Positions 13,594 to 63,752 of a DNA stretch of 64,000 bases are shown here, one piece after another. Source of the DNA: Candidatus Hermodarchaeota archaeon (lineage in GTDB: Archaea > Asgardarchaeota > Lokiarchaeia > Sigyniarchaeales > SOKP01); the NCBI GenBank assembly GCA_048885925.1, contig JBHLLG010000004.1:32001-96000 (forward strand), in the 5' to 3' direction. Numbering within the stretch: the first letter of the stretch is position 1; the number at the start of each line of letters is the position of its first letter. The notes under the pieces are model-generated. The model had not been told where the DNA came from. It did not search any database and saw only the letters and a program-made list of their open reading frames with translations. The position numbers and the translations under genes were made by a program.

Positions 13594-13686
13594 ATATTAA
13601 TATAATTTAATTTTTGTTTATTTTTTTATCTTGTCTATCTTGATTCGACATTTGAATTTTAAAAAAAAGAATTTAATAAAAAAGCT

Positions 13687-14736: not shown

Positions 14737-14869
14737 TTTCCATCTCTCAAGTACATTTTAGATTTTTTAAAATTTAATCAAATAATTTTTAATTAATAAC
14801 TATGTTTTACGACAATATTAAGGTTATATCTATAATTTATGTAGTTAAAATAAAAATCAAGAGAATGTT

Positions 14870-16144: not shown

Positions 16145-17134
16145 GTGATATTCATGGAAGAGAGAATAAAAGGAAGAAAGAATTATCCTACTGATGAAAT
16201 AGATCCGAAAAACTTTCTAAGTGATGAGCTTGTAAAGGATATGATTAATAAGAAAGATAATATTCATTTTAATTCAAATGATTTTTATAAACTCTACAAT
16301 TGTGTCCATTGTGGAGAATGTGAAACTGAAATGGAGCGAATTTCATTAAAAGAAAAATATATCGAAGAAGGAAATATATTTGAAGGAGTTGATGAGATGA
16401 GAGATTATTTTAACGAATTTAGATCACCATATCCTAGTAATAAGATGCGAATTAAAAGACTAAAGGGAATTTCTAGAGATTCTGATACTCTCTTTTTCAT
16501 GGGTTGTCTCTCCACGATAAGGATTCCTCAATATACTCAACATGCACTTCAATATTTAATACAACAAGAGGTAGATTTCACTATTTTAAATACCGAAATT
16601 TGCTGTGGATGGCATCTTAAGATTAGTGGATTAAAAAAGGAATTTGAAACATGTATAAATGAAAATATAAATATTTTTAATTCAAAAAAATTCAAAGAGA
16701 TAATTTGTTTATGTCCTGCGTGTTTTTATCTATTTAAAAATGAAATGGATGGTTTAAACGCAGAAGTAAAATATATTTCTGATTATATAAAACCTTCAAA
16801 TCTACATAAATCAGGTAGAGTAGGAGTGCAACATTTGTGTCAATTAATGAACAGAGATAAAGAAGGAATAGATAAATTTATAGTTGACATACTTAAAAGT
16901 GCAGGTTACAAAGTTGTAGATATCCCCCATTGGTGCTGTGGTGGAGGATCTGGTTGGATGGGACGAACAGATGTAATAGAAAAGATTGCTCAAAAAAGAA
17001 TGTCTGATTTTGATCGAGAAGATCTTGACTACGTTACAAGTTATTGTCCTTCTTGCTGGTGGATATTAAGGAGATTTAGTAAACAATGTAAAATTCACCC
17101 TAAAGCTATCGATCTTTTTGAATTATTACTCTGA
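16145..17134 (+). CDS. Fe-S oxidoreductase with two CCG domains (HdrD/GlpC-like)
   Basis: CVHCGEC, FMGC, EICCG, CPAC, HLC, CCGGGSG, CPSC. Confidence 0.85.
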   Translation: MIFMEERIKGRKNYPTDEIDPKNFLSDELVKDMINKKDNIHFNSNDFYKLYNCVHCGECETEMERISLKEKYIEEGNIFEGVDEMRDYFNEFRSPYPSNKMRIKRLKGISRDSDTLFFMGCLSTIRIPQYTQHALQYLIQQEVDFTILNTEICCGWHLKISGLKKEFETCINENINIFNSKKFKEIICLCPACFYLFKNEMDGLNAEVKYISDYIKPSNLHKSGRVGVQHLCQLMNRDKEGIDKFIVDILKSAGYKVVDIPHWCCGGGSGWMGRTDVIEKIAQKRMSDFDREDLDYVTSYCPSCWWILRRFSKQCKIHPKAIDLFELLL

Positions 17135-25230: not shown

Positions 25231-25779
25231 TCAACTAATTGTAGATTTTTCAAACATAGCGTATATTGTTGTCTTATGAATCGAATAAATAAACTCTGGA
25301 GGAATAGTCTCTTTTAACTTTTTTATAAAATCGTTAATAACTTTTTCATTAAACTTATCATCATATGCCAAATCAGGGTCAAATTTGTGCAGAAAAATAG
25401 AAAAATCGAAGCTACCAATTTCATTAACTGAATTAATCACCTTTTTCAAATAATCAAGTGCAATATTATAACGCTTGACGTCTTGAATATCAATAACATA
25501 TATAATTTTATTAGCGCCCTTTACATATTTACTAAAATTATTAAAATAATCATCAAAGTAGGCCTTCTGACCTCCAAGATCCCAAATTGCATAATTTGAA
25601 TTTAAAGCTTCAAATTCTTGTACATTAAGACCTTTTGTAGGCATCGGAGAATTAAAAGCAGATATACGTTTAATACCCTTTAAACAATTTAAAATTGATG
25701 TTTTCCCACTATTATCTAATCCTATTAAAACAATTTTTATAGAACCTTCAGCAAAATCGTTATTTTTTAATCTCTTCAT
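25231..25779 (-). CDS. Small GTPase, Rag/Arf-like
   Basis: G1 GLDNSGKTS, G2 PTKG, G3 DLGGQ, G4 HKFD, G5 TTIY. Confidence 0.9.
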   Translation of the reverse strand: MKRLKNNDFAEGSIKIVLIGLDNSGKTSILNCLKGIKRISAFNSPMPTKGLNVQEFEALNSNYAIWDLGGQKAYFDDYFNNFSKYVKGANKIIYVIDIQDVKRYNIALDYLKKVINSVNEIGSFDFSIFLHKFDPDLAYDDKFNEKVINDFIKKLKETIPPEFIYSIHKTTIYAMFEKSTIS

Positions 25780-47119: not shown

Positions 47120-48256
47120 TTAATATTTTGAAGGAGTTTTCGATTTAATTTTATGCTTTGGTATAGTTTTAGTTTTCTTTATTTCCCTTTCAAAGTTTCT
47201 TTTTTCATTTAGAAATCTTTGCTTATCCTGTTCTAATTTTTCTCTTTCACGTCTGATGATACTTTTCTCATTTTCTAAGTATGACTTTTCTTTTTCTAAT
47301 TGTCTATAATCATTATTTAATTTACTAAATTTTTCTTCTAATTTTGGGATTTTAGAGTTTAAGGAGTGATAAGTACTTTCTGCTCGAGGTAGCTTTTTCT
47401 CTAATTCATTTAATCTTGCTTCATGTTGCTTTCTTCTTTTTTCTAAATCTTTTACATCTTTTTCCATCTTTTCTTTAGCTTTTCGGAGATCTGCATTCTT
47501 TTTATCAATTTCACGAGCTTTTAGATCTAAATCTTGTTTTCTATAACGAGTTTTTTCTCTTTCTTCTTTCAATTTTTTTTTCTCGTCAGAGATTCGATTT
47601 TTTTCATCATTAATTTCCCTTTTTAAATTACTAATTTCTCTATCTAAATTATCTCTCTCTTTAGTTAAGTGTTTAATTTCATTTCTCAAATCCATTAACT
47701 TATCTTCTAAATTATTTATAGTTCTATTTAAAGCATCCTCTCTTCTTTCCATTCCGGGAAGTTTTGTTTTAATTTCTTTAATGCGATTTTCTGTGTTTTC
47801 TTTTTCTTTCTCTAATAAATTCTTTTCTTTTCCTATTTGTTCTCGAACTTTATTTAATTTTTCTTGGAATGTTTCTAATTCAGCTTTTTTTTGATTTAAC
47901 TCTTCATTTCTTCTTCTGAATTTTTCTTTAAATTGTCTTTCTTTATTAGTTAAATCATCATTTTGCTGTTGAATTTTACTCTTTAGATAATTTAATTCTT
48001 TTTCTAGCTTATCGCGTTTTTCAAGAAGATCTTTGATTTCTAATTCTCGATTTTTTCTTTTTTTTTCAAGATCTTGGACATTATCTTTATAATCTTGAAT
48101 TTGTCTAACAACTTTTTCCCATTCGGTTTTTTCTTTATCTAATTTAACTCTTTCTTTTTTTATTTTTTTAAGTAGTTTTTTATCGGAAATTACTTCAATT
48201 TCCTCTTCGGGTGTTTTTTCTCGAATTTGATATTTAGGAATAGTTTCGTCATTCAT
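47120..48256 (-). CDS. Long coiled-coil protein
   Basis: Near-continuous K/E/R/L heptad pattern over more than 300 aa. Confidence 0.8.
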   Translation of the reverse strand: MNDETIPKYQIREKTPEEEIEVISDKKLLKKIKKERVKLDKEKTEWEKVVRQIQDYKDNVQDLEKKRKNRELEIKDLLEKRDKLEKELNYLKSKIQQQNDDLTNKERQFKEKFRRRNEELNQKKAELETFQEKLNKVREQIGKEKNLLEKEKENTENRIKEIKTKLPGMERREDALNRTINNLEDKLMDLRNEIKHLTKERDNLDREISNLKREINDEKNRISDEKKKLKEEREKTRYRKQDLDLKAREIDKKNADLRKAKEKMEKDVKDLEKRRKQHEARLNELEKKLPRAESTYHSLNSKIPKLEEKFSKLNNDYRQLEKEKSYLENEKSIIRREREKLEQDKQRFLNEKRNFEREIKKTKTIPKHKIKSKTPSKY

Positions 48257-48466: not shown

Positions 48467-48868
48467 ATGGGTTTTGATGATGATTTTGATGAAGATTTTG
48501 ATGAAGAGCTAGACGAAGATTTGGATGAGGATTTGGATGAAAAAATAGAAGAACCTGCTTCAAAAGCTCCTACAGAAGTAGTTGAATCAAAAACTCCTGC
48601 AACTAAAGTTATTGTTGAGGGAAAAAAGATATCATTATATTTTATGTCGACAATAGGACCTGGAGAAAAAAAGCAAAAATTACTCGTAAATACTGGAAAT
48701 AATGTTGGAGATGTTAAAGAAACTGTAGCAAACTTATTTGGATTAGATCCTGCTGATTTTCATTTATCATCTGGTGGAGTTACAATGGATGAGAATTCAT
48801 ATTTAAAAGATTATAATATAAGTGATGGTGACGATATACTTTTAATTCCAGCGAGTACAGCTGGTTAA
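48467..48868 (+). CDS. Ubiquitin-like protein 1 with acidic N-terminal tail, ends STAG
   Basis: Beta-grasp pattern VGDVKETV...FHLSSGGVTMDENSYLKDYNISDGDDILLI; C-terminal Gly. Confidence 0.88.
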   Translation: MGFDDDFDEDFDEELDEDLDEDLDEKIEEPASKAPTEVVESKTPATKVIVEGKKISLYFMSTIGPGEKKQKLLVNTGNNVGDVKETVANLFGLDPADFHLSSGGVTMDENSYLKDYNISDGDDILLIPASTAG

Positions 48869-48913
48869 ATATTTAAGTTAAAATCAGTATATTTAAAATA
48901 AAAAATCTTTTTT

Positions 48914-49708
48914 TTAACTCTTTTCTTTTCTTGAGGGAATTAGAGCAATTTCATCATCTTCGCTTATATCATAATCTTTTATTTGTAAGGTTTCATTCAA
49001 TAATATTCCTCCAGAAGAAAGAAGAAAAGATTCTAGATCATAATCAAACAGTTTACCAATTCTCTCCTTAATTAAACTTAGTAATTCCATTCTCTCAATG
49101 ATAATTATTTTTGTTTTTTCTCCAGGTTCAAGTAAAGACCTTACATAAACGCGGGTTTGATCTTCAAGGTCAATAGGATTTATAGGTGGTGTATATACAA
49201 TATCTTCATCAACTCTATCTCTATTCTTTAGCATATTTTCAATCAATACTTTTCTTTCATGTGAATTAAAATAAATCATTTCTCTAATAAACAAAATCTT
49301 ATCCATTTTTGATAATCCGAGAAGATTTATCTTATCCAATTCTTCTTGGCTAAAAATTGAAAAAATATATTTATCAATTATCGGCTTATCCTTATATGAT
49401 TCATTCGATTCAATATATTCTTCTATTGAAGGCATAGCTTCAATATAATCATCAAAAATGCTAGTAGGTATCCTTTTAATTGATTTTTTTTCTGCAATAA
49501 ACTTTTTTTTTCGTACCTTGTCACCCCAATTATCTTGAGATTGAATAATAGTATAAATGGTACTTGTAGATAATATTGCTACACTCCCAATTGTGAGAGA
49601 AAAAAATAATGGAATACTGTCTATACGATAAAAGAAAAAAGCTACATAAGCTAAAATAAAAAAAATATAAAGTGCAAAAACACTAAAAATTCTATATTTT
49701 TTCCTCAT
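48914..49708 (-). CDS. Membrane-anchored protein with C-terminal Ubl domain lacking the terminal Gly
   Basis: Two N-terminal TM; C-terminal PGEKTK...FLLSSGGILL...IKDYDISEDDEIALIP matches the neighbouring Ubls; ends SRKEKS. Confidence 0.8.
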   Translation of the reverse strand: MRKKYRIFSVFALYIFFILAYVAFFFYRIDSIPLFFSLTIGSVAILSTSTIYTIIQSQDNWGDKVRKKKFIAEKKSIKRIPTSIFDDYIEAMPSIEEYIESNESYKDKPIIDKYIFSIFSQEELDKINLLGLSKMDKILFIREMIYFNSHERKVLIENMLKNRDRVDEDIVYTPPINPIDLEDQTRVYVRSLLEPGEKTKIIIIERMELLSLIKERIGKLFDYDLESFLLSSGGILLNETLQIKDYDISEDDEIALIPSRKEKS

Positions 49709-49793
49709 AATTTTTTAAATAGATTTTGTTCTGAATTCTAAATATTTAATTTGACATATAAATTCCATTGGAATAAATTTGAAGTTTTAATAT

Positions 49794-50465
49794 TCATACT
49801 CCTTGAATTGATTTTTTAACTTGAGAATATTTTTCTCTATCTAACCTAAATAACTTTCTTTTTCCATCTTCTTCGATTCTTATCAATTTCAGATCTTTTA
49901 GAATATCTAAATATTTTTTTATAATATTATGATTTTTTTTCAAATTGACAGATATTTCTGTAATTTTCAGTTCTTTATTTGCTTCTTCCATAAAATTAAT
50001 TATTTTTTGAACGATTTTCTTCTTCAAATAATAATATAATTCATCAAATTCAGGATTTGAATCAAATTTAAAGAAAATTCTGTGATTATTGATTTTTTTT
50101 GATCTAACAAAATTAAATTTTTCTAAGCAGGATAAATGCCATAAAACTTGGTTGCTTCCGATATTTAAAACTTTCATTATTTTGTTAATATTAGATGGAT
50201 TCTTTTTAATATAATTTAGGATCTCATTTCTAGTAGGATTTTCAACTATATTATTTTTCATTAGTCTAGTTCCAGGGATAATAATACGTCTTTTTAGTAA
50301 CTTCTTTAAAATTAACTCTATACTATTTTCGTTAATATTAGGATTATATTTTACCCTATTATTTATATAGGATATAATGTCTCTTATCGAAAAAAAGCTC
50401 TTTTTTGTTAAATACTCCTCTACTAATTCAAGAACAATAGGTTCAATATTATTAAGAGAAGTCAT
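49794..50465 (-). CDS. Multi winged-helix transcription regulator
   Basis: NPTRNEILNYIKKNP...WHLSCLEK and a second HTH ITEISVNL...KKYLDIL. Confidence 0.8.
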   Translation of the reverse strand: MTSLNNIEPIVLELVEEYLTKKSFFSIRDIISYINNRVKYNPNINENSIELILKKLLKRRIIIPGTRLMKNNIVENPTRNEILNYIKKNPSNINKIMKVLNIGSNQVLWHLSCLEKFNFVRSKKINNHRIFFKFDSNPEFDELYYYLKKKIVQKIINFMEEANKELKITEISVNLKKNHNIIKKYLDILKDLKLIRIEEDGKRKLFRLDREKYSQVKKSIQGV

Positions 50466-50734
50466 AATCCTATATTATTAATATGTTGAAATTTAATGGG
50501 TTTTATAATTAAATATTCTCTCTAATACAACATTTTATATTTTATATATATTAATAGGCATTCATACAATTTATAATATAATTTATTGAAATTCATAATT
50601 TCTCCATTTTATTCGGGATAAAGATCTGAAAAAACTTCAAAATCATTCCAAAGGGTTTTATAATATTTTTTTAACGCTATTTTATTAAATTTAACAAAAT
50701 TAAAAAATCAAATAATTAAAAAAAAGTGATATGA

Positions 50735-51067
50735 ATGAGTTTTGATGAATTTGATGAGGATTTAGGGATGGAGGAACCAGTAAAATCTAAAACTCCCGCT
50801 ACTAAAATTCCTTCCGCAGGAAAGAAATTGACTTTATATTTCATGTCTACCATCGGACCTGGTGAAAAAAAGGAAAAATTAACTGTTAACGATAACAATC
50901 GTATAAGAGATATTAAAAATACATTAGGAAATTTATATGGACTTGATCCTAATGATTTTCATTTATCTTCGGGTGGAGTTACAATGGATGAAAATAGTAC
51001 ATTAAAAGACTATAATCTTAATAATGGTGATGATATTCTTTTAATTCCTGCTAGCACAGCTGGATAA
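50735..51067 (+). CDS. Ubiquitin-like protein 2, ends STAG; first gene of the E1-E2-JAB-RING cluster
   Basis: IRDIKNTL...FHLSSGGVTMDENSTLKDYNLNNGDDILLIPASTAG. Confidence 0.9.
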   Translation: MSFDEFDEDLGMEEPVKSKTPATKIPSAGKKLTLYFMSTIGPGEKKEKLTVNDNNRIRDIKNTLGNLYGLDPNDFHLSSGGVTMDENSTLKDYNLNNGDDILLIPASTAG

Positions 51068-51098
51068 ACTTATATAATTTTTTTCATAAACTATAATG

Positions 51099-51130
51099 TA
51101 AGGGCTTTAAGCCCTTAAATTTTTTTTATT
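51099..51130 (+). terminator. Inverted repeat plus T-tract between Ubl2 and E1
   Basis: TAAGGGCTT-T-AAGCCCTTA at 51099-51117 followed by a long T-run. Confidence 0.45.
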
Positions 51131-51145
51131 TTATAATGATTATTA

Positions 51146-52381
51146 TTGGTGTTTATATTGAAAAATAGGTCAGATTTTTTTAGTAAAGAGCTAACAACGG
51201 AAGAGAAAAAATTATACGACCGCCAATTTAGGCTTGAAGGATGGTCGCAAAAATTAGTAAAGAATTCTCGCGTTTTAATGATAGGTGTAGGAGGATTAGG
51301 GTGCGAAATTGCAAAGAATCTAGCAATGCTAGGAGTAGGGCATTTAGATTTAGTAGATCTTGATATCATTGAACATTCAAATCTAAATCGCCAAATCTTA
51401 TTTGCTGGAGCAAAAGTAGGAGAATCAAAAGCACTTGTTGCAGCAAGAAAATTAACTGAAATTAACCCTAATACTATAATAAAAGGTTATCAAACTTCCC
51501 TAGAACGATTAGATCCAAGAATATATCGCGCTGCAGATGTTGTTATTGGTGGGCTTGATTCCATGAATGCTCGGTTGAATTTAAATGCTCAATGTATAAG
51601 ATTTAGAAAACCATTAGTCGATGGAGGTGTATCTGGCTATCATGGTCATGTTTATACAATTTTTCCATTTAAAAATGCATGTTATGAATGCAATCCACTT
51701 CCGGTTGGAGAAAGTGACGAAATGGCAGCGTGCACAGTAGTAGGCGTTCCTAGAAAGAGAATCCATTGCGTTTTTAAAGGAGACATGGCGTTTAAAGAAA
51801 ATTTTGATAGAGATCCTAATCCAAAAAATATCAATGATATCAAATTTATACAAAAAGTTGCTAATGAATTAGTAAATAAACATAATTTTCTTCCGGAGTA
51901 TACCGAAGATGATATTGTAAAGATAATTGATCGACATGATCCAGGAATAATTACCATAAATGCTGTCATTTCTGCGTTACAATCACATGAAGTTGTAAAA
52001 ATCCTTCATTGGAAGAAAGGTCATACAGGTTTAGGTGAGCCTATTACTGATTATGTTATTTTCAATGCAATGACAATGATGTTTTATCATATTGAGAAAA
52101 AAAAAAATCCAGAATGTTCCCAATGCGGAAAAAATGTCCGGAGATTTTTAGTTAAATTAAGAAAAACTTCCCCTTGTATTAATATAATAAAAACTTTAGA
52201 GAAGCGTGGTTTTAAGCTAGATTCTGATCTAGAACCAGTATTAACATTAGTGGATTTTAATGATGTTAAGATGATAGATTTAGACCAGAATCCAATTGAA
52301 AATTGCTTAAGAGATTATGAATTTATGACGGCTGCTGGATTTAAGGAAGGAGAAATTTTTGTAACTTTAAAATTGAAATAA
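51146..52381 (+). CDS. Ubiquitin-like activating enzyme E1 (ThiF/UBA family)
   Basis: YDRQ, GVGGLGCE, SNLNRQ, GLDS...AR, CYEC, putative catalytic ACT...PR...HC, CSQC. Confidence 0.93.
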   Translation: MVFILKNRSDFFSKELTTEEKKLYDRQFRLEGWSQKLVKNSRVLMIGVGGLGCEIAKNLAMLGVGHLDLVDLDIIEHSNLNRQILFAGAKVGESKALVAARKLTEINPNTIIKGYQTSLERLDPRIYRAADVVIGGLDSMNARLNLNAQCIRFRKPLVDGGVSGYHGHVYTIFPFKNACYECNPLPVGESDEMAACTVVGVPRKRIHCVFKGDMAFKENFDRDPNPKNINDIKFIQKVANELVNKHNFLPEYTEDDIVKIIDRHDPGIITINAVISALQSHEVVKILHWKKGHTGLGEPITDYVIFNAMTMMFYHIEKKKNPECSQCGKNVRRFLVKLRKTSPCINIIKTLEKRGFKLDSDLEPVLTLVDFNDVKMIDLDQNPIENCLRDYEFMTAAGFKEGEIFVTLKLK

Positions 52382-52491
52382 AAATTCTGTTTGAAAAGGT
52401 TTTATATGAAAATTTTATGAAATAAAAAGAAATATAACTATAAATTTAGATATTTAAAATAAACGATAGAAAAATAAAAAGGGTTGAGAAT

Positions 52492-53019
52492 ATGAGTATA
52501 AGAAGTAGTCGAATATCTCAAGATTTTGCGGGATTAAAAAAGTTATATAAAGATGGAACTATTGTCCAGTTAAAACCATTTAATCCCAATAGAAAGAGTA
52601 TTGATCATTTAGCTATCACTATTAAAGGTCCTAAAGGTACTGCCTATTCAGGAGGTCTTTTTAAATTAGAAATGAGATTCCCTGCACAGTATCCCAAACA
52701 GCCACCTTTTGTTAGATTGCACACTCCAATCTGGCATCCGAATTTTTGGGCAAAACCTAGTGAATATAAAGGCCAGAGGAATATTTGCTTAGCATTAGTA
52801 GATCCCTCATTAGTAGGCAAAAAAGGAGGATGGAGCCCATCAAAAACAGCTGTGACAGTTGTTCAGGCTATAATTGCTATGCTGAACACAAGGGGTAAAT
52901 ATGTAAATCCCACTGATGTTTTTAATAAAAAAGCAGCGATAGAGATGATGAAAAATCAAAAATTGTTCGAGAAAAAAGTAAAAAACTTAGTTAAAAAGTA
53001 TGCAAATAAAAAGTGGTGA
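52492..53019 (+). CDS. Ubiquitin-conjugating enzyme E2
   Basis: GPKGTAYSGGLF, FPAQYPKQPP, WHPN, NICL, WSP. Confidence 0.95.
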   Translation: MSIRSSRISQDFAGLKKLYKDGTIVQLKPFNPNRKSIDHLAITIKGPKGTAYSGGLFKLEMRFPAQYPKQPPFVRLHTPIWHPNFWAKPSEYKGQRNICLALVDPSLVGKKGGWSPSKTAVTVVQAIIAMLNTRGKYVNPTDVFNKKAAIEMMKNQKLFEKKVKNLVKKYANKKW

Positions 53020-53843
53020 AATTTAAGATGGGAGAGGATAATTCACATTTAGACTCTATTAAAGAAACAATAAAGAAGAAAATTAAAGATGTAATTAAGA
53101 AGGAATTGTTAGAAGAAATCTATGAAGAATTAAAAATGGAAGAGAAAGAGTTAGTAGATGAAATTAGTTCAATGATCTCTAAAAAAGATCCTGAAACCCA
53201 AACGATAAAGCATTCAACTACTCCAGCCAATTCACAATCAATAAAGGAAGAACAAAAAATTATTTTTGAAGATAAAATAGAAAAAGAAGTATATATTTCA
53301 GTCAAGGCAATATTAAAAGTAGCTAGTCATGCTCTTAAATACGCTAATTCTAAAATTCCAAAAAAAAGTTGGGTGGAAGTAATAGGATTACTAGCAGGTA
53401 AATTAGATAATAAAAATGGTATTTTACACATTGAGGATTATTATCCAATGGGTCATGGAACAGCTGTTTATGCTGAAATAAAAGATTATCGAAACTATGC
53501 TAGGGCATTCCGAGATATTAAAAAACAACAGTTATTTATCTGTGGTTGGGCACACAGCCATCCTTCTTATGGTTGTTTTATGTCTAATGAAGATATTGGT
53601 ACTCAAGCAAGATATCAAAAGCTCTGGGATAAAGCTGTTGCCCTAGTTATCGATCCGTATCTTATTGATGGAACTTCAGCTGGTTTTGAAATTTATCGTG
53701 CTGATTTAGCTTCAAAAACGTGGTATCCTTTAGTATATGGTATTAAAGGTTCATTAGATATTCGGATGTTACCAGAAATACTTAATTTTATGAATCCAAT
53801 AATTGAAGGCAAACCCGTATATCTCGAATATGATGAAAATTGA
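53013..53843 (+). CDS. JAB/MPN+ metallo-isopeptidase, Rpn11/CSN5-like (start GTG 53013 or ATG 53028)
   Basis: EVIGLL, GWAHSHPSYGCFMSNEDIGTQ (JAMM motif), ALVIDP. Confidence 0.93.
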   Translation: MVKFKMGEDNSHLDSIKETIKKKIKDVIKKELLEEIYEELKMEEKELVDEISSMISKKDPETQTIKHSTTPANSQSIKEEQKIIFEDKIEKEVYISVKAILKVASHALKYANSKIPKKSWVEVIGLLAGKLDNKNGILHIEDYYPMGHGTAVYAEIKDYRNYARAFRDIKKQQLFICGWAHSHPSYGCFMSNEDIGTQARYQKLWDKAVALVIDPYLIDGTSAGFEIYRADLASKTWYPLVYGIKGSLDIRMLPEILNFMNPIIEGKPVYLEYDEN

Positions 53844-53871
53844 AACAGATAATTTTGGTGATGAATAAACT

Positions 53872-55029
53872 GTGGCTAAAGTTAAATCTGTTGCAATTGT
53901 TCTAGGGATATTTTCATTAATAGGCATAATACATGGTGTTATTTCAAATTCTTTTAACATATTTATAACTTGGGTATTAATTGGAATCTGGTTGATTTAT
54001 TCTTTTAAAGTATTTAAAAATATTAAGCAGTATCGCGAATTTAATTCTCCTCATAATACTGCTTTCTTTATTATAAGTCCTATTTTTGTTGGAATTTTTT
54101 ATTCAATTTGGAGTAATTTTACTGGTATATTGGGAGAGAATCTTTTAGAAGGTTCAGATTTATATTTAAGTTGGTGGAGTATATTATTTGGTTTTCCGTA
54201 TGTGTTATATGGTTCAATATCATTATATCGTTGTTTTAAAAAATACCATGTAATTTATTTTGGTACAAAATCAATAAAAGCCCGTACTTTTGGATATATC
54301 TTAGGTCTATCAACTATAATTTTTATAATTATCTATTGGATAAGTTTTTATTCTGTTGTTGACTTTAGTGAATCTTTACTAACACCTCTCCATTTTCTAA
54401 TAGATCTCAATCTTCTCATATTCCTTATTAGTACTATTTTAATATTAATTGTCCCCGGATTAATTGGAGGTCAAACCCGTCTACCACAATTAAGTAGAGA
54501 CTATATTTCACAACGAACACGTAGATTAAGCCGATTAACTTCACCTAGAATAACCTCAACTCCTCGTAGGCAGAGAGAAAGTTCTCGTAGTTCATCTAGA
54601 TCTTCTCCCTCTCCTTCAATTAGTACAAGTACTCGCACATCGAGATCAGTAACTCATTCAGTAAGATCCACACCAAAAGCAAACAGAACAACTGTAAGTT
54701 CAAGAGCTAAAGCATCCACTCGAACTGTACATAGAAAAAATTTAGATCTATACAAACCTAAAGCCGCAAGTTTATCACCGGAAGACTTTAAATGCATTTT
54801 TTGTTTTAAATTACCGGAATTACCTAAAGATAATGGTAGAGGCATAGTACTATGTCCAAAATGTAGGTATCCTGCCCATGCAGATGAATTCAAAGATTGG
54901 CTTTCAAACTCTAACCTTTGCTCTCGATGTAATGCACCTATTTCAGGAGGTTTTAGAAGAAATCCTAGAATTATTAGTGTAAAAAATTATTTAATAATTT
55001 ATAGAGATTTTCTAAGGAGAGGAAGATAG
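53872..55029 (+). CDS. Polytopic membrane protein with C-terminal RING-variant domain (putative E3)
   Basis: About 6 TM, Ser/Thr/Arg linker, CIFC...CPKC...HADEFKDWL...CSRC. Confidence 0.8.
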   Translation: MAKVKSVAIVLGIFSLIGIIHGVISNSFNIFITWVLIGIWLIYSFKVFKNIKQYREFNSPHNTAFFIISPIFVGIFYSIWSNFTGILGENLLEGSDLYLSWWSILFGFPYVLYGSISLYRCFKKYHVIYFGTKSIKARTFGYILGLSTIIFIIIYWISFYSVVDFSESLLTPLHFLIDLNLLIFLISTILILIVPGLIGGQTRLPQLSRDYISQRTRRLSRLTSPRITSTPRRQRESSRSSSRSSPSPSISTSTRTSRSVTHSVRSTPKANRTTVSSRAKASTRTVHRKNLDLYKPKAASLSPEDFKCIFCFKLPELPKDNGRGIVLCPKCRYPAHADEFKDWLSNSNLCSRCNAPISGGFRRNPRIISVKNYLIIYRDFLRRGR

Positions 55030-55061: not shown

Positions 55062-56006
55062 TTAAATTTTCATTTTCAATTGTTTTTTTAACTCCCCTAT
55101 AGTGGTTTTTAGCTCCGCATAAACATTATGAGGATGGATAGACTCAAGACTTTCAATTTTAAATTTAACTTTAAAATTATCTTCGAGATTTGGAAAATTT
55201 CTCGAAATGAAATTTTTTGCCATTTCTCTAACAACATCTTCAGAAAATAGAGGTTTCAAGTGAGCAGTTCTTACTAATTCGGCTTCTTCAGGTCTTTTTA
55301 AAACAGATTGAATTTTACCACTCATTGATTCCTCTATAACATCAATAATGTCCAAAACATCTATCTTATGATTATTTAAATCTTTTATTTGAACTATAAT
55401 TGTTCCAATAGATCTTTGATTATGTGAGGAAAAGGGAAGGATATTTAAAAGTTTATTAAGATCGTCTTCTGTAACTTTGATATCTTTTCTAGATTTAACA
55501 ACTTCTTGGGCGTATTCTAATGAGAGTTCTTTTGCACATGGACAAACTGTCATTCCAACTGCGCTTGCCCCTATGAAGTAATTATAATCGATATGATAAT
55601 GACTATCTCGGTTTGCTTTTACAAAGGAACTAATATCATAGGATTTTTGAATAATCCTTTCATCATTTTCTCGTACTTGAACGATAATTTTTCCTTCCAA
55701 TTTGACTTCTGCTTTTGAGGTATATGGATGGCGTTCCATTAATTTTTTCACTATTCTATCTCCAACGAGTTCAATAGTAGGAGTAGGTTTGAAAATTACT
55801 TCATTAATTACTTCTTCTATTGTTTCTGAAGTACGAGACATATGAATCCCTCGTTGTTCAGCGGGTAGATTAATTAATGCTGATATTCTTGGGTAGAAAG
55901 AATATTTCTTATTCTCTTGTACAATCTCAACTTTTTTTTCTAATTCTACAATACCGACTTTATCAATTGGTATATCTATTGCTGAACCAGAATCCTGTAA
56001 ATCCAT
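55062..56006 (-). CDS. mptA: GTP cyclohydrolase MptA/FolE2
   Basis: DLQD, RGIHMSR, GMTVCPC, HNQRS, LKRPEE, ESIHPHN. Confidence 0.93.
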   Translation of the reverse strand: MDLQDSGSAIDIPIDKVGIVELEKKVEIVQENKKYSFYPRISALINLPAEQRGIHMSRTSETIEEVINEVIFKPTPTIELVGDRIVKKLMERHPYTSKAEVKLEGKIIVQVRENDERIIQKSYDISSFVKANRDSHYHIDYNYFIGASAVGMTVCPCAKELSLEYAQEVVKSRKDIKVTEDDLNKLLNILPFSSHNQRSIGTIIVQIKDLNNHKIDVLDIIDVIEESMSGKIQSVLKRPEEAELVRTAHLKPLFSEDVVREMAKNFISRNFPNLEDNFKVKFKIESLESIHPHNVYAELKTTIGELKKQLKMKI

Positions 56007-56116
56007 TTTAAACTTATGAATTTTGACTCACCAGAATCAAAAAATAATTTTATTTTGTTCTATTCATAAAAAAGATTAGATAAAATATAAAATAATTTGA
56101 ATTTTTTAAGAGTAAA

Positions 56117-57289
56117 ATGCCTCATAAAAGTATTTTTAGCAATTTTGCATTAATAGGGGAAGATTTAGCATTAAAGCAAGATGTGTTTTTAGAAATTGAT
56201 GAAGATGGAAAAATTTTAGAAATAATATATGATGATTTAGATACATCTAATATAACTACTGATAGTAGTCAAAATTACTTACTTTTACCTGGGTTTATCA
56301 ATTCACATACTCATATAGGGGATAATTTCGCTAAAGAATTAGGCTTTAACAAAGAATTAGTAGATATAGTTGCCCCAATGTTTGGTCTGAAACATAAACT
56401 ATTAAGACAGACGCCGGACACGGTTAAAATTAAAGGAATTCAAAATGCTGTCTTAGAAATGCTTTCAAATGGAATTACATTTTTTATTGATTTTAGAGAA
56501 GAAGGAGTTGAAGGTTTGAATCTTCTAAAAAAAGCACTTATGGAAAGTCCAATGAATTATATGCTTTTAGGTCGGTTTATGGATGAGAGTGAAATAGAAT
56601 CTATTTTTGAATTAGCAGATGGAATGGGATTATCTAGTTATAAACAAATTACTTCAATAAATAAAAAATTAATTATAGAAGCTAAACAAAAATTCAATAA
56701 AATTATTGCTTGTCATTGTGCTGAAAATACCCGTAATATTAATCTAATAAATGATATGTTTAATGATGATTTTATTGATGTAATTATCCATGCGACAAAA
56801 TTTATCAAAGATGATTTAGAAGAAGTAATTTCAAAGAGTAAATCAGTTGTTTTATGTCCTCGTAGTAATGGGTATTTTGGAGTCGGTTTTCCCCCCATTA
56901 ACGAAATTATAAAACTAAAGATTCCAATATCTTTAGGTACCGATAATACAATGGTAAATAATACCGATTTATTTGAAGAGATTCGTTATTTGTATAGAAT
57001 TTCTAGGATTTTATGCAATTATAATAAAGAACTTCAATTAACATCTAAAGATTTATTAAAAATGGTTACTATAAATGCGGCTAAGAATTTTCATCTTGAA
57101 AATAAGTTGGGTACAATTTCTAAGGGAAAATTTGCTGATATTTTTCTAATTGACCTAAGCCACTCAAATCTTTTTTCTACCAATTTAGATTCTAATAATA
57201 TATATGATTTAATTACTCAAAGAACAAAATCAGAAAATATTATTAAGACATATATTAAAGGGGAGGTAGTATTTGAAAGAAGAGAATAA
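56117..57289 (+). CDS. Amidohydrolase (cytosine/adenosine deaminase superfamily)
   Basis: PGFINSHTH, HCAE, IHAT, CPRSN, LGTDN, TINAA, GKFAD. Confidence 0.9.
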   Translation: MPHKSIFSNFALIGEDLALKQDVFLEIDEDGKILEIIYDDLDTSNITTDSSQNYLLLPGFINSHTHIGDNFAKELGFNKELVDIVAPMFGLKHKLLRQTPDTVKIKGIQNAVLEMLSNGITFFIDFREEGVEGLNLLKKALMESPMNYMLLGRFMDESEIESIFELADGMGLSSYKQITSINKKLIIEAKQKFNKIIACHCAENTRNINLINDMFNDDFIDVIIHATKFIKDDLEEVISKSKSVVLCPRSNGYFGVGFPPINEIIKLKIPISLGTDNTMVNNTDLFEEIRYLYRISRILCNYNKELQLTSKDLLKMVTINAAKNFHLENKLGTISKGKFADIFLIDLSHSNLFSTNLDSNNIYDLITQRTKSENIIKTYIKGEVVFERRE

Positions 57290-57938
57290 GCCTTATATCA
57301 TTTTAAGCGCTGCAATGACAATAGATGGAAAAATTGCTACTAAAAAGGGTGATTCAGAATTATCGGATAAAATTGATTGGAAAGAAGTCCATAAACTCCG
57401 AACCGAAGTTGATGCTATAATGGTTGGAAAGGGAACGATTTTAAAAGATAATCCAAAATTGCATATTAAATATTATCATCATAAAGGATATTATAGAATT
57501 GTTTTAGATAGCAATTTAACCATTCCTTTAGAATCCAATATTATCTCTTTTCAACAAGAAATCTATCCCACTATTATTTGTACAACTGAAAATGTTCCAA
57601 TAACTAAAGTAAAAATGTATGAAGAAAAAAGTGTTAAAATAATTAAAGCTGGGGATGGAGAGCGTGTGAATTTGATTAAACTTTTACCAATCTTAAAAGA
57701 TTTCGGAATAAATTATATTTTACTTGAAGGTGGTGGTAATTTAAATTGGAGTTTTATTGAAAATGATTTGATTAACGAAATAAGGCTGACTATAGCTCCT
57801 TGTATTGTAGGTGGAAAGGAAGCAACAAGCTTAGTAGAAGGAATAGGATTTGAAGAAATAGCTAAAGCTCCTAAATTTGAGCTTTTTGATGCTAAAGTTA
57901 GAAATGATTACATTACATTAAGATATAAAAGGAAGTAG
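57273..57938 (+). CDS. arfC: 2,5-diamino-6-ribosylamino-4(3H)-pyrimidinone 5'-phosphate reductase (RibD C-terminal family)
   Basis: AMTIDGKIAT, VHKLR, DAIMVG, DNPKL, LLEGGG. Confidence 0.88.
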   Translation: MKEENKPYIILSAAMTIDGKIATKKGDSELSDKIDWKEVHKLRTEVDAIMVGKGTILKDNPKLHIKYYHHKGYYRIVLDSNLTIPLESNIISFQQEIYPTIICTTENVPITKVKMYEEKSVKIIKAGDGERVNLIKLLPILKDFGINYILLEGGGNLNWSFIENDLINEIRLTIAPCIVGGKEATSLVEGIGFEEIAKAPKFELFDAKVRNDYITLRYKRK

Positions 57939-57940
57939 TA

Positions 57941-59047
57941 ATGAGTGAATATAATATCAAGCAATTAATAGGTTTAACCAATAAACACCTAAGAGAAAAA
58001 GTTAAGGAGATAAAAGCACCATTATCTCATAGAAAACGCAACACAATTACTTATTCGAAAAATTTTACACTCTCTCTTTCGAACTTTTGTATTAATCAAT
58101 GTGGATATTGTTTTTATAATTATAAAATCCCGAAGTTAAGTGGTGAAGATAATGTAATATTGAAAGCAAAAGAGCAAATCGAGACAATAATTCAAAAAGC
58201 TATTCAATATGATTGTAAGGAAGCCCTTGTTATGTCTGGAGAACTTCCTGGTAATTTCATTGAAGTTAAAAAAGAATTAGAAAAAAGAGGCTATTCAGAT
58301 TTTATACTATATGTGACAGAAATATGTAAATATTTACTTGAATTTAATGTTCTTCCTCATACAAATTTAGGATTTTTGACTTATGATGAAATGAAAAAGT
58401 TAAAGGAAATTAATGCAAGCATGGGATTGATGCTTGAGAGCACCAGTATGAGACTTTTTGAAAAAGGAAAGGTGCATGAACATTCTCCTGGAAAATTACC
58501 AGCAAAAAGAATAGAACACATAAGCAATGCTGGAAAATTAAAAATTCCATTTACTACAGGTTTATTAATAGGAATTGGGGAAACAATTGAAGATATAATA
58601 AAAGATTTACATCTAATCAAAAAGATCCATAATAAATATGGACATATACAAGAAGTGATAATCCAAAATTTTGTAAATAAACAAGGGATTCCCTATCAAC
58701 CTAAAAAACCTATTTCCATTGAAAAGATGCTCAAAATAACAGGAATTGCTCGTATCATTTTTGAAAATGAAATTGCCATTCAAGTTCCACCAAACTTAAT
58801 AAAAGGTTTTGAAAAAAATTTTATCGATATAGGTATCGATGATTTTGGTGGAATTTCCCCCATTACGTTAGATTATATAAATCCTGAAAAAAGGTGGCCC
58901 CAAATTGATGATTTGAAAAAAATTTGTATTGATAAAGGTTATTTTCTTAAAGAAAGGCTCCCAATATATGATAAATTTATAAATAAAGAAGGATTTTGTT
59001 CAGAAAATATTAAAAAAATAATTGATAATATAAATTTAAATGCTTAG
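57941..59047 (+). CDS. cofG: FO synthase subunit CofG (radical SAM)
   Basis: ITYSKN, CINQCGYC, LPHTNLG, SMGLMLES, IPFTTG, QVPPNL, DDFGGISP. Confidence 0.93.
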   Translation: MSEYNIKQLIGLTNKHLREKVKEIKAPLSHRKRNTITYSKNFTLSLSNFCINQCGYCFYNYKIPKLSGEDNVILKAKEQIETIIQKAIQYDCKEALVMSGELPGNFIEVKKELEKRGYSDFILYVTEICKYLLEFNVLPHTNLGFLTYDEMKKLKEINASMGLMLESTSMRLFEKGKVHEHSPGKLPAKRIEHISNAGKLKIPFTTGLLIGIGETIEDIIKDLHLIKKIHNKYGHIQEVIIQNFVNKQGIPYQPKKPISIEKMLKITGIARIIFENEIAIQVPPNLIKGFEKNFIDIGIDDFGGISPITLDYINPEKRWPQIDDLKKICIDKGYFLKERLPIYDKFINKEGFCSENIKKIIDNINLNA

Positions 59048-60173
59048 TTCTCAGTTTTTCGAGCATATCGACCAACGTGTTAATAAAATTTTACAGAAAG
59101 TTTTAGATTCAAAAGAATTGAGTTCAGAGGAAGCATTAGAATTATTAAAAGTAAATGGAAAAGAATTTTTTGCTTTACAATATATAGCTGATCAGGTCTG
59201 TTTAGAAAAAAAGCATAATATTGTAACTTTTGTCGTTAATAGAAATATAAATTTCACTAATGTGTGTTATCAACGTTGTAAGTTCTGTTCTTTCAGTTTA
59301 CCTGCTACAGATAATGATGCTTTTTTGCTTACTATTGATCAAGTTAGAGAAAAAGTAATTAAGGCAAAAAATGCTGGTTGTAGTGAAGTTTGTATTCAAG
59401 GAGGTATAAATCCCGATTTGACATTTGAATTTTATATAGATATTCTTAAATCTGTCAAAAAAATTGACCGAAATATACATATTCATGCTTTCTCTCCACA
59501 AGAAATATTTTATATATCCAAATTGTATGATAATTCAATAGAAGATACTTTGAAAGAATTAAAAAATGCTGGTTTAGATTCCATTCCGGGAACAGCTGCA
59601 GAGATATTAGTAGATGACGTGCGAAAAATTATTTGTCCTAATAAAATTACAACGTCCCAATGGATAAATATTATAACCATGGCTCATAAATTAGGAATTC
59701 CAACAACATCTACCATAATGTATGGTCATATCGAAAGTTTAAATGATAGAGTTAAACATTTACACATTATAAGAGAAATTCAAAAAGAAACTAAAGGTTT
59801 TACAGAATTCGTACTTTTGCCATTTATAAAGGATAAACCGATTTTGTCAAGACTGGAAAATTTCCCATTGAATCCTAGTTATGGAATGGATGATTTAAGA
59901 CTATTTTGTGTTGCTAGATTATTTTTAAATAACTATATTGATAATATTCAATGTAGTTGGGTGAAATTAGGACCCAAGTTTGCTCAAGTTTCTTTGAGTT
60001 ATGGCGTTAATGACTTTTCTGGAACTCTAATGGAGGAAAATATATCTAAAAGTGCTGGAGCGGAATTTGGAGAGTATTTATCTCCAGAAGAAATTGTGGA
60101 AATTATAAAAGAAGCAGGAAAAAAACCTGCCCAAAGAGATACTCTTTATAATATTATCAAATATTATAGATAA
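59040..60173 (+). CDS. cofH: FO synthase subunit CofH (radical SAM)
   Basis: NRNINFTNVCYQRCKFC, HAFSPQE, PGTAAEIL, TIMYGH, SWVKLG, GTLMEENIS. Confidence 0.93.
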   Translation: MLSSQFFEHIDQRVNKILQKVLDSKELSSEEALELLKVNGKEFFALQYIADQVCLEKKHNIVTFVVNRNINFTNVCYQRCKFCSFSLPATDNDAFLLTIDQVREKVIKAKNAGCSEVCIQGGINPDLTFEFYIDILKSVKKIDRNIHIHAFSPQEIFYISKLYDNSIEDTLKELKNAGLDSIPGTAAEILVDDVRKIICPNKITTSQWINIITMAHKLGIPTTSTIMYGHIESLNDRVKHLHIIREIQKETKGFTEFVLLPFIKDKPILSRLENFPLNPSYGMDDLRLFCVARLFLNNYIDNIQCSWVKLGPKFAQVSLSYGVNDFSGTLMEENISKSAGAEFGEYLSPEEIVEIIKEAGKKPAQRDTLYNIIKYYR

Positions 60174-62180: not shown

Positions 62181-63752
62181 TTATTCATCCTGTATATAAG
62201 GTTTACCTAACTTTAAATAAATTTCTGCCTTTTTCAACTCTCTTCCAAGATAATTTAAATGATATATCTCTTTAGTTAATTCATTTTGAATTATTTTTTT
62301 ACTTAAAGCTTCAGCATTGTCTCCAATAAAAGTTTGAAGTAATTTTTCATCATTAGAATAAAAAAGAATGTAAATTTTTTTAGAGTAATGATTAACATAA
62401 ATTCTAAAATAACCAATATCATCAGGAACGTAATCAGGTATTAAATCTTTTACAAATAATGCATTTTTTTCATTAATATAAGGAATCTCTTGATTAATTT
62501 TTCCTTTTGCTTTAAAAAGAGAGATTCCTTGATTTATTGGAGGAGTTTTTTTACTTTTCGCGACATAATTCAATTTTATACTTTCCTTTAATTCTTTTAC
62601 TCCTCCTATTAATTTTGTACTATGTTCAACAGTAAAAAGAATTCCAACATCTAATTCAATTGCGATACTTGCTAATAATCCATTAATTCCAACTGAATCG
62701 ATGTCAATAAGTTCAACCACATTTGAAATACCGAAAAATAATGGAAGTTCTAAATGTTTATATTTCTCTTCTGTAACTTTTTTTTTATATAAAAAATAAG
62801 TTTCTAAGGAATTACAAATTCCAGGATTTATAGGCGTTTCTAATAGTGGATCAGCAATTAGTTTTTTAAACCCATTCTTTTGTAATTCTTCTATTAATTG
62901 AAATAAGTTATTAATACGTGTTTCAGGATCCTTCGGAAAGTAAGCTTTATTAACATTCGTAGGAAGTATGACAATAGGAATGTTTTTTGGAAGACTTAAA
63001 AGTTCTTGGTAATTGCCTAAATCCAAACTAAGGATGAGATCGATTCCCTCATCAACAGCAGCATTTATTTCTTGTGGATCCATAGAATCAATGCTGATTA
63101 ATATGTCAAAATTAGATCCAATTAATTTAATTATTTCACGAATTCTATCCGGATATGGTTTATTTGAAACGCAACCAATATCTATAATATCTGCTCCACT
63201 TTCTATATAATGGTTTACTTTTTTTAATATCTTATCATTACTTTTTTCAGTACAATTCACAATTTCAGCAATAATTGGGGGTGGCAAATTCCTTCCAATT
63301 ATAATATTAGATTTTTTTTCATTAATGTAGAAAGTATGAGTATCTAACTTATTCTTTGCGAGGTCTATTTGATTTTTTATTATTTTAGAAAATTCATTTA
63401 CTCCTGAAAATTCTAATAATCGGTTTGCTGGAATTGAATTGGATAAATCTAAATCTTCTATTTTTTTTAAAGTATTAGGTAAATCAGATGCAAATTCTGG
63501 TCCCTTTCTAATTTTGATTGAATATTTATCTTCTATATTCTTAGAATCCCATTGTACAAAACCTGGTAATAAAATTACATCATAATTAGAGATTTCTAAT
63601 GTTTCCAAAATTTCAATTGTCAGAGATTCTGTTAGAAAAGCAGAAATTGATATCGGGGCTTTTATTATAAATATTTCGTGATTTTCTATAGACTTGGTTA
63701 TCTTTTTTATTATATTATAACTCTGTTGACCTGTAATTATAAGAATTCTAAT
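62181..63752 (-). CDS. Archaeal dihydropteroate synthase-like protein; start extended to ATT 63752 (ORF track start 63608)
   Basis: N-terminal RILIITG, IIAEI, GADIIDIG, ISIDS, NVVELIDIDSVGIN, HLNYLGRELKKAE...YIQD. Confidence 0.85.
   Translation of the reverse strand: MRILIITGQQSYNIIKKITKSIENHEIFIIKAPISISAFLTESLTIEILETLEISNYDVILLPGFVQWDSKNIEDKYSIKIRKGPEFASDLPNTLKKIEDLDLSNSIPANRLLEFSGVNEFSKIIKNQIDLAKNKLDTHTFYINEKKSNIIIGRNLPPPIIAEIVNCTEKSNDKILKKVNHYIESGADIIDIGCVSNKPYPDRIREIIKLIGSNFDILISIDSMDPQEINAAVDEGIDLILSLDLGNYQELLSLPKNIPIVILPTNVNKAYFPKDPETRINNLFQLIEELQKNGFKKLIADPLLETPINPGICNSLETYFLYKKKVTEEKYKHLELPLFFGISNVVELIDIDSVGINGLLASIAIELDVGILFTVEHSTKLIGGVKELKESIKLNYVAKSKKTPPINQGISLFKAKGKINQEIPYINEKNALFVKDLIPDYVPDDIGYFRIYVNHYSKKIYILFYSNDEKLLQTFIGDNAEALSKKIIQNELTKEIYHLNYLGRELKKAEIYLKLGKPYIQDE

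Follow-up and report, generated by a model that had tools for sequence, protein, structure and literature searches.

A stretch of 64,000 nucleotides (hereafter the window) on contig C4 of the genome of a Lokiarchaeial (Asgard) archaeon (3.9 Mb in 181 contigs, 95% complete, about 25-34% G+C) contains, between positions 48467 and 55029, eight genes that probably constitute a working ubiquitin-like conjugation pathway. Five of them encode a ubiquitin-like tag (Ubl2), an activating enzyme (E1), a conjugating enzyme (E2), a JAMM-type protease (JAB) and a transmembrane (TM) protein ending in a RING-fold domain (TM-RING), all in the same orientation and separated by gaps of 78, 110, -7 and 28 nt. An earlier note, made from the letters of the window, had proposed the eight genes and, among them, this complete and compact set; all were found where it had placed them, and their assignments hold in the open reading frames (ORFs), in Pfam and, for the RING, at the level of the fold. 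Gene content, catalytic motifs, folds, synteny, the conserved tag terminus and the DNA and peptide motifs were observed directly, and from them we infer the enzymatic steps, the topology, the link between a regulator and its DNA box and the role of a peptide motif.

We propose the following course for the pathway. Near-paralogous tags, Ubl1, Ubl2 and a third copy encoded elsewhere in the genome, would be synthesized with Ala-Gly at the C-terminus, either free or under a short cap, and the JAMM protease would trim the capped tags and remove tags from their targets. The eukaryote-type E1 would adenylate the terminal Gly and take the tag onto its Cys196, and the tag would then be handed to Cys99 of the UBC-type E2. 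The cytosolic RING-fold domain of the six-helix membrane protein would bind the charged E2, steering the tagging reaction to the cell membrane or its vicinity. In the genus and its closest relatives the cassette seems to have gained a module made up of a second Ubl, a membrane-anchored, non-conjugatable UBL-domain protein (TM-Ubl) and a double winged-helix regulator. A 17-nt box adjoining the TATA element in the promoters of Ubl2 and TM-Ubl is where this regulator probably acts. The tag tails and the ends of a neighbouring coiled-coil protein have in common a conserved motif, ψ-x-S-K-T-P, which is probably a site of docking or an acceptor site that these proteins share.

Both tags have the same layout: an acidic N-terminal tail, an SKTP-containing motif (ESKTPATK in Ubl1, within VESKTPATK; VKSKTPATK in Ubl2), a beta-grasp domain and the end ...IPASTAG followed by the stop codon. 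They are 66.7% identical over 117 residues, and Ubl2 lies directly upstream of the E1 gene, so that the beta-grasp modifier is encoded beside its presumed enzymes. The 894 relatives of Ubl2 are named 'ubiquitin-like domain-containing protein' at NCBI or hypothetical. The end of the tag was surveyed in the 141 complete free Ubl ORFs of 80 named loci, all from Promethearchaeota/Lokiarchaeia assemblies and reaching as far as Candidatus Lokiarchaeum ossiferum, together with 15 loci of other families. All 141 carry an IP-x-S-x-Ala-Gly end and none the Gly-Gly end of the modifiers of archaeal ubiquitylation operons, which extends the observation of the earlier note that Gly-Gly is not the end of the Ubls. 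The stop codon follows Ala-Gly directly in 93 of them, and the other 48 have variable tails of 1-8 residues (YF, RLI, K or KINRNI, for instance) that differ between genomes. Since conservation halts exactly at the Gly and the residues beyond it vary, the mature end would be this Gly and the caps would be trimmed; the tailed orthologues look like pro-forms.

Further genes carry tags of this family. Another free Ubl gene, the third, occupies positions 286-618 (minus strand) of contig C11 and shares 94% identity with Ubl2; the duplication took in its promoter and the 17-nt box as well. It adjoins a gene for an EamA-like membrane protein and stands apart from the enzyme genes. In a locus of another Asgard family (L110:15075-16814, minus strand) a 580-amino acid protein has an N-terminal P-loop ATPase (GASGSGKT), HerA/FtsK-like in appearance, fused to a C-terminal Ubl of the cassette tag family that ends ...SSRAG, and its gene adjoins that of the coiled-coil neighbour. 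About 2 kb downstream of the cassette, two Lokiarchaeales loci (L089:6432-7268 and L088:12727-13059, both plus strand) have a Ubl-fusion gene; its 279-amino acid product begins with a zinc ribbon, continues as a coiled coil and closes with a Ubl whose end is ...SSTAG plus two residues, making it a cargo-fused and apparently conjugatable tag.

The E1 combines an adenylation domain bearing GxGGxG with two CxxC zinc motifs and the catalytic-Cys segment containing Cys196, and about 80 further residues extend it at the C-terminus; it thus has the adenylation domain and catalytic cysteine that characterize the E1s of archaeal ubiquitylation operons. All of the 74 sequences compared share G47, G49, G50, G52, C179, C182, C196, C324 and C327. 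Among proteins of solved structure the E1 is closest to SUMO E1 subunit 2 (SAE2; 1.6e-38), Uba1 and the NEDD8 E1 UBA3, the last aligned over residues 35-332, and its similarity to bacterial MoeB/ThiF and to UBA5 (1.5e-16) is far lower. Cys196 aligns with the Cys of the 'PGCT' segment of SAE2, which we take to be the catalytic one. The accessible part of Hennell James et al. (2017; PMC5654768) places Lokiarchaeal E1 homologues in clusters I/II, and its statement on the E1s of these clusters suggests that the C-terminal extension contains a UFD. The E2 shows the UBC fold, with the HPN motif His82-Pro83-Asn84 and the catalytic Cys99, scores 91.8 bits on UQ_con and finds, at E<=0.001, 281 E2 chains of solved structure, the best of them at 2.6e-15; H82, P83, N84 and C99 are invariant in 31 sequences. 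JAB has an N-terminal extension of about 90 residues and the motif HSHPSYGCFMSNED at residue 181, and the full JAMM signature (E122, H181, H183, S191 and D194) is invariant in 72 sequences, making it the probable tag-maturing and deconjugating enzyme. By these motifs E1, E2 and the protease look active.

Two other uses of such proteins were considered and rejected. A sulfur-carrier role is ruled out by the E2, RING and JAB genes and by the catalytic-Cys segment of the E1, although no rhodanese search was made. An E1-only system of the SAMP/Urm1 kind is ruled out by the presence of E2 and RING, and the E1 obtained 109 bits on the NCBIfam SAMP-E1 model against a cut-off of 450.

The form of the tag end raises a different alternative, namely that the UFM1 pathway has its archaeal precursor in this cassette; both would expose a single-Gly tag by trimming and act at membranes. 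UFM1 ends in a small residue and one Gly after removal of a two-residue cap, and the tags described here likewise end in a small residue and a single Gly, some orthologues having two-residue caps; moreover, a UFL1-like ORF exists elsewhere in the genome. UFC1, on the other hand, is not known to have HPN, while the E2 of the cassette has that motif and its high UQ_con score, the tag scores as ubiquitin, and the E1 is far nearer to SAE2, Uba1 and UBA3 (1e-38 to 1e-34) than to UBA5. Whole-genome searches with the Pfam families Ufm1 (PF03671), UFC1 (PF08694) and UFL1 hit none of the window genes, the first two even at E<=1. A supplement to Koestlbacher et al. (2026; PMC12962969) lists a Lokiarchaeial protein of range 1-175 labelled 'UFC1', which is perhaps an orthologue of the E2; the Pfam results obtained here do not support the label, and the Ufm1-like protein of the same source spans 84 residues and is a different protein. 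Taken together, a UFM1 forerunner appears very unlikely.

The last gene of the cassette would provide the ligase. TM-RING has six TM helices predicted by hydropathy within residues ~8-200, a Ser/Thr/Arg-rich linker and, at the C-terminus, a RING-fold domain flanked by helices, with its ligand residues at 308-353 (nt 54793-54930). Since TM helices are predicted in TM-Ubl as well, two components are membrane proteins, in agreement with the membrane association put forward in the earlier note. An AlphaFold2 (AF2) model of the last 96 residues (290-385), built with 35 orthologues, reached a pLDDT of 89.1, and VIA-align aligned 51-81 of its residues with Z from 8.2 to 5.1; about 40 of the 50 rows listed are RING, U-box or named RING/U-box E3s, and the others are chains of large complexes whose titles are silent on the chain. 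The RINGs of Pex proteins and Hrd1 occur among the fold matches of Foldseek and VIA-align. AF2 and VIA-align thus point to a cross-brace RING/U-box fold, Foldseek more weakly so. The 28 sequences compared, which come from several Asgard families, all share C308, C311, C328, P329, C331, P334, H336, E339, W343, C350, R352 and C353, giving the pattern C-x2-C-x13-16-C-P-x-C-x4-H-x2-E-x3-W-x6-C-x2-C, whose spacing is that of a C4HC3-type RING in a C4-H-E-C2 variant. At the ligand-6 position, eight relatives inspected out of the 150 listed by a profile search have His, Cys, Asp or Glu, each of which could serve as a metal ligand. The RING-domain profile retrieved 237 proteins at E<=0.001 from 1.84 billion representatives, so the family is small; its distant members P0332 (44.9 bits) and P0343 (31.3 bits) pass Pfam zf-RING_2 (cut-off 27.3). 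Pfam being blind to the RING of the cassette, its identification comes from the fold and from this transitive profile link, which make TM-RING a probable membrane E3.

It could also be that the six-helix protein is not an E3, its zinc domain being a RING-shaped binding module, or the protein itself a substrate or anchor, with E1 and E2 acting alone or with another ligase. TM-RING passes no Pfam RING family (zf-RING_16, 13.6 bits against a cut-off of 27.4), and among 35 family members searched with curated RING profiles Prok-RING_1 (best E=0.023) appeared in 34 and zf-RING_16 (best E=0.0091) in 33, all below the cut-offs. Foldseek gave nothing at E<=0.001 for the RING model (best 1.7e-3), and VIA-align itself warns that Z below 8 can reflect a common arrangement. 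One canonical zinc ligand, the sixth, is Glu339, the seven other Cys/His ligands being invariant. Against solved structures the full-length profile produced weak matches only, to a zinc finger at the C-terminus of IFT144/WDR19 (E=0.0023), not known to be an E3, and to RNF24 (0.13). In spite of these points we regard a role other than that of a ligase as unlikely, because: (i) the gene directly follows JAB across several Asgard families; (ii) RING/U-box E3 domains dominate the fold matches, and (iii) the presumed E2 contacts of RING E3s are kept, namely a hydrophobic residue at the second position after the first Cys and, in the helix H-x2-[ligand]-ψ-x2-W, Trp343. A predicted complex of E2 and the RING scored 0.11 against a mark of 0.32, a value that counts neither for nor against binding.

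The TM domain of the protein matched no solved structure and no known family. All 361 relatives of the protein either lack a name or are called 'hypothetical', and no precomputed Pfam domain is recorded for any of them; in the ESM Atlas it falls in a cluster of its own at 0.97, while Prok-RING_1 clusters at about 0.8 are leads only. Soluble relatives of the RING domain were seen in the proteins P0347, P0351 and P0353 and as ~190-200-amino acid open frames in genomes of family f9, with an N-terminal zinc ribbon, a helical middle, a C-terminal RING and His where the membrane form has Glu; these ~200-amino acid proteins are probably small RING proteins of the same genomes.

The arrangement of the genes is not due to chance, as it is conserved among relatives. 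The order Ubl-E1-E2-JAB-TM-RING is found throughout the 80 named loci, including that of L. ossiferum, and also in other Asgard families, which answers the synteny check suggested by the earlier note. Eleven of the 15 loci of other families hold the five genes, three of these 11 (family f9) in the rearranged order E2-JAB-TM-RING ... Ubl-E1; of the remainder, three are truncated or partial and one has a weak RING match only. Their tags end S-[TR]-A-G and their RING proteins have 3-6 predicted helices. An E2 orthologue (at least 72% identity) occurs in 31 of 40 related genomes, and 39 of the 40 have some E2 match at E<=0.001 when a ~40%-identical paralogue is counted. Among 300 genomes sampled from the phylum, 179 match the RING-domain profile, unevenly by family (57 of 67 in f1, 27 of 28 in f9, 18 of 21 in f26 and 9 of 11 in f18). 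Judged from this distribution, the cassette is old within Asgard archaea, has been inherited mostly vertically and was lost in some lines. The locus stretch itself is present in 20 DNA sequencing runs from seven studies.

The same distribution bears on the idea that the locus serves defence against viruses, as the bacterial Bil and CBASS Cap2/Cap3 systems do. These systems have the same list of parts (Ubl, E1, E2 and JAB), and the PADLOC E1-E2 models match the E1 (best 4.7e-18). The matches, however, cover just the generic adenylation domain, with 0.005 for the E2, 0.002 for JAB and none for the Ubls and the RING. Furthermore, the cassette has a fixed place between ordinary, housekeeping genes, its identity falls with kinship, unlike that of patchy defence islands, and no defence genes occur in the flanks. 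Defence is hence the least probable of the alternatives considered, and hardly to be expected.

The cassette is apparently not the only tag system of its host. Contig C40 encodes a second E1 (13583-15166, plus strand; 527 amino acids, with a long insertion, 46% identical over the adenylation core) and, some 1.3 kb away, a second E2 (16498-17019, minus strand; 173 amino acids, HPN kept, 39% identical), this paralogous E2 being present in nearly all of the 40 relatives. Contig C34 (~24210-24448, plus strand) encodes a small ubiquitin that ends ...AGG plus one residue and is 20% identical to Ubl2. Two Ubl tag systems seem to coexist in the genome.

The coiled-coil protein encoded beside Ubl1 is linked to the tags by its termini. 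The motif ψ-x-S-K-T-P is common to the N-terminal tails of the Ubls and to both ends of this divergently encoded neighbour, which starts with ...IPKYQIREKTP and finishes with ...IPKHKIKSKTPSKY, giving ψ-x-[SE]-K-T-P, and which matches coiled-coil families of Pfam only below threshold. Its gene is syntenic beside the Ubl across Lokiarchaeales and in the loci L110 and L111, and 51 of 57 complete orthologues have [STA]-K-T-P or S-R-T-P within their last 30 residues, often in 2-4 repeats. In the tags, [ST]-K-T-P precedes the beta-grasp in 119 of the 141 free Ubls; of the other 22, 18 have variants (AKTP, SKSP, SKVP and others) and four have no clear variant, one of these being a truncated ORF, and the tags of other Asgard families often have two copies. 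Two further cassette neighbours in family f26 carry I-[RQ]-[ST]-K-T-P. Within the genome, the stricter K[ST]KTP occurs in three of 5841 ORFs of at least 60 amino acids, namely Ubl2, its C11 copy and the coiled-coil neighbour, all of the system; as shuffled proteomes yield 1-5 matches, it is the location of the matches that matters and not their number. The shared termini make the coiled-coil protein a candidate substrate or adaptor that would belong to the system.

In the closest relatives, the extra module, Ubl1 (+), TM-Ubl (-) and the winged helix-turn-helix (wHTH) regulator (-), is inserted between the coiled-coil neighbour and the Ubl heading the enzymes, and more distant Lokiarchaeales (L086-L091, L093, L095 and L097) have a single Ubl at the same place. 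The AF2 model of TM-Ubl (pLDDT 69.5) has two TM helices forming a hairpin (4-26 and 32-59), a helical middle domain and a beta-grasp (184-258), and its C-terminal domain gave at least 500 ubiquitin-fold matches in Foldseek (best E=2.3e-6). TM-Ubl, of which 25 orthologues were aligned, ends ...IPSRKEKS and not in Ala-Gly, so that, as far as its predicted structure and terminus tell, it is a membrane-anchored UBL-domain protein that is not conjugatable. The regulator is of ArsR type, with a double winged helix; an NCBIfam ArsR/SmtB subfamily matches it at 3.7e-11, below its cut-off, and further wHTH families match residues 150-205. It is encoded opposite Ubl2, divergently as the earlier note had it, and now has a candidate operator, since the most conserved block of the alignment of the regulator-Ubl2 intergenic region (55 sequences) is the 17-nt box. 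The exact 17-mer has two copies in the genome, one at Ubl2 and one 5' of the Ubl2-like gene on C11, the latter not independent because it was duplicated with that promoter. Allowing up to three mismatches, the box precedes the E1-proximal Ubl in 53 of 56 regulator-bearing loci and in five of 25 whose examined stretch has no regulator, some of these 25 being cut off at a contig end; within 150 nt upstream of TM-Ubl it was found in 20 of 52 loci. We propose that the box is the binding site of the wHTH regulator; its position fits a regulator acting just upstream of the transcription factor B recognition element (BRE)/TATA. Between Ubl2 and E1, a hairpin followed by a T-run, found in 44 of 71 loci under a strict rule and with variant stems that keep the pairing, looks terminator- or attenuator-like, suggesting that the tag is transcribed in excess of the enzymes. 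All features of the locus are collected in Table 1.

Table 1. Features of the conjugation locus, with positions in the 64,000-nt window (Pfam ubiquitin cut-off 25.4 bits)
Feature	Position	Strand	Description
Coiled-coil neighbour	47120..48256	-	378 aa; Lys/Glu-rich; divergent from Ubl1
Ubl1	48467..48868	+	133 aa; Pfam ubiquitin E=2.8e-5, 24.2 bits, just below cut-off
TM-Ubl	48914..49708	-	264 aa; Pfam ubiquitin E=7.5e-5, 22.9 bits, just below cut-off
17-nt box, second copy	49768..49784	-	2 mismatches; directly 5' of the TATA-like element of TM-Ubl
wHTH regulator	49794..50465	-	223 aa; Pfam HTH_5 E=1e-10; two winged-helix stretches
17-nt box CTTCAAAATCATTCCAA	50635..50651	+	2-4 nt upstream of the Ubl2 element GGTTTTATAATA (BRE/TATA-like)
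Ubl2	50735..51067	+	110 aa; Pfam ubiquitin 28.2 bits, above cut-off
Hairpin TAAGGGCTTTAAGCCCTTA and T-run	51099..51127	+	G+C-rich; between Ubl2 and E1
E1	51146..52381	+	411 aa; Pfam ThiF 9.1e-59
E2	52492..53019	+	175 aa; Pfam UQ_con 3.7e-26
JAB (JAMM/MPN+ protease)	53013..53843	+	276 aa; Pfam JAB 5.9e-14
TM-RING	53872..55029	+	385 aa; Pfam zf-RING_16 E=0.053 at best

Beyond the doubts on the ligase, several observations weigh against the pathway as proposed. No RNA run is among the sequencing runs listed as carrying the locus stretch. The cassette is not universal: in nine of the 40 relatives the E2 search met either the ~40%-identical paralogue alone or nothing, two of the genomes with only the paralogous E2 (G031 and G037) being single contigs, and in family f11 the RING-domain profile matches none of 76 genomes. 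With a second E1/E2 pair and a Gly-Gly-type ubiquitin in the genome, other pairings of tags with enzymes are conceivable. The box and the regulator trace to what seems to be one evolutionary gain, so that their association is confounded by descent and does not constitute independent evidence. Finally, the looser ψ-x-x-K-T-P is not enriched in the proteome (70 observed, 50-61 in shuffles), and hence no further targets can be named.

In G031 a 42-residue remnant of the RING domain was observed at C1:594198-594323, in a 69-amino acid open frame with an internal stop, which suggests that the cassette decayed in that lineage.

The surroundings of the locus are ordinary. Directly 3' of the cassette, 55062-60170 and 62184-63608 hold a pterin/deazaflavin cofactor cluster with genes for an MptA-type GTP cyclohydrolase, an amidohydrolase, a RibD_C reductase, two CofG/CofH-like radical-SAM proteins and a pterin-binding enzyme; upstream there is a nucleotidyltransferase-like gene and, further out, FtsZ and AlaRS. 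At 25234-25779 (minus strand) the window also encodes an Arf/Rag-type small GTPase (Arf 2.4e-21, Gtr1_RagA 2.6e-15), a typical Asgard 'eukaryotic signature' gene, which adjoins an ArsR regulator and a MASE3-PAS histidine kinase with its response regulator.

Ubiquitin signalling at membranes, as in endoplasmic reticulum-associated degradation, endosomal sorting and peroxisomal import, is a hallmark of eukaryotic cells, and to our knowledge its prokaryotic roots have so far appeared only as soluble minimal cascades. A conserved cassette with a polytopic ligase would be a concrete candidate for the ancestor, or for an early parallel, of membrane RING ligases. A further-reaching reading, which we advance only tentatively, would be that of an Asgard-wide, membrane-based Ala-Gly tagging pathway, separate from Gly-Gly ubiquitin, in which ψ-x-S-K-T-P, placed in the flexible N-terminal tail, is the acceptor or docking site of the tag itself and the coiled-coil protein, with this site at its ends, is a built-in substrate or scaffold. 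Were this the case, recognition of a consensus, as in the SUMO pathway, would direct both the building of tag chains and the tagging of the scaffold, at the membrane, and the ligase would rank as the most ancient relative known of the polytopic RING ligases with which eukaryotes carry out the quality control and sorting of membrane proteins. The proposed pathway is directly testable because a cultured carrier, L. ossiferum, has the cassette; the invariant Ala-Gly end and the SKTP tail motif would be simple handles for finding tagged proteins, and the 17-nt box with its regulator a route to the conditions under which the pathway is switched on.

The genes of the cassette are of a known, eukaryote-like archaeal kind catalogued as eukaryotic signature proteins. 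For Lokiarchaeota, Hatano et al. (2022; PMC9192718) describe a discrete 'Ub region' that stands apart from the ESCRT genes and is probably the gene cluster described here; in the accessible part of that text E3s were sought only by the UFL1 signature (IPR018611), and neither a membrane RING nor an Ala-Gly end is mentioned. The core cassette is accordingly an orthologue of a region already catalogued, and the distinctness from Asgard operons that the earlier note had claimed is not upheld. The note's own reservation, that the locus might simply be orthologous to characterised operons, is justified as far as catalogued clusters go and not for the biochemically characterised operons of Caldiarchaeum and Helarchaeia, which differ because they have Gly-Gly tags and small soluble RINGs. 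In the literature searched we found no description of an Asgard transmembrane RING ligase or an Ala-Gly tag, although the cluster figures of PMC9192718 and PMC5654768 may already draw the membrane protein, and none of the extra module with its box or of the tail motif.

From the operon of Caldiarchaeum subterraneum, as given in the accessible part of PMC5654768, a ubiquitin, an E1-like, an E2-like and a small RING protein and an adjacent Rpn11-type JAMM protease were reconstituted, and trimming of the pro-ubiquitin cap by the Rpn11-type protease was demonstrated. Both systems have five functional parts, a tag that is at least partly a pro-form, a JAMM-type protease, an E1 with a catalytic Cys and a UBC-type E2 with HPN. 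The tags differ, with Gly-Gly plus nine residues in Caldiarchaeum and Ala-Gly plus 0-8 residues here, as do the RINGs, that of Caldiarchaeum being a small soluble protein and the present one forming the C-terminal part of a membrane protein with six predicted helices and having Glu as its sixth ligand residue; small RING finger proteins (srfp) were, according to the supplement of PMC5654768, the sole RINGs found in archaea as of 2017. TM-Ubl, the regulator, the second Ubl and the SKTP tails are extra here. The Helarchaeial E1/E2/RING cascade, which mono-ubiquitylates UEV-Vps23 (bioRxiv 10.1101/2023.07.25.550441, accessible part), is likewise an Asgard cascade with a capped tag. There the tag is Gly-Gly plus four residues, the RING is soluble with an N-terminal loop and the genes are linked to ESCRT, whereas the present locus has no ESCRT gene; Loki- and Thorarchaeia are described in the same source as having no UEV-Vps23.

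Eukaryotic membrane RING E3s (Hrd1, Doa10/MARCH6, the MARCH family and Pex2/10/12) show the combination of a polytopic membrane protein and a cytosolic RING that is proposed for TM-RING, and the ligand spacing of TM-RING resembles the C4HC3 type. TM-RING differs in having its RING C-terminal, Glu at the sixth ligand, no match to Pfam RINGv or zf-RING and a TM domain that matches no family. A flexible N-terminal tail with a conserved Lys-containing motif serves chain formation in SUMO2/3, and the tails of the Ubls may be likened to it. The nearest solved relative of the E1 is the second subunit of the SUMO E1, and Ubc9 aligns with nearly all of the E2 (residues 4-171). The tag, in contrast, scores best as ubiquitin, and its ψ-x-S-K-T-P differs from the SUMO consensus.

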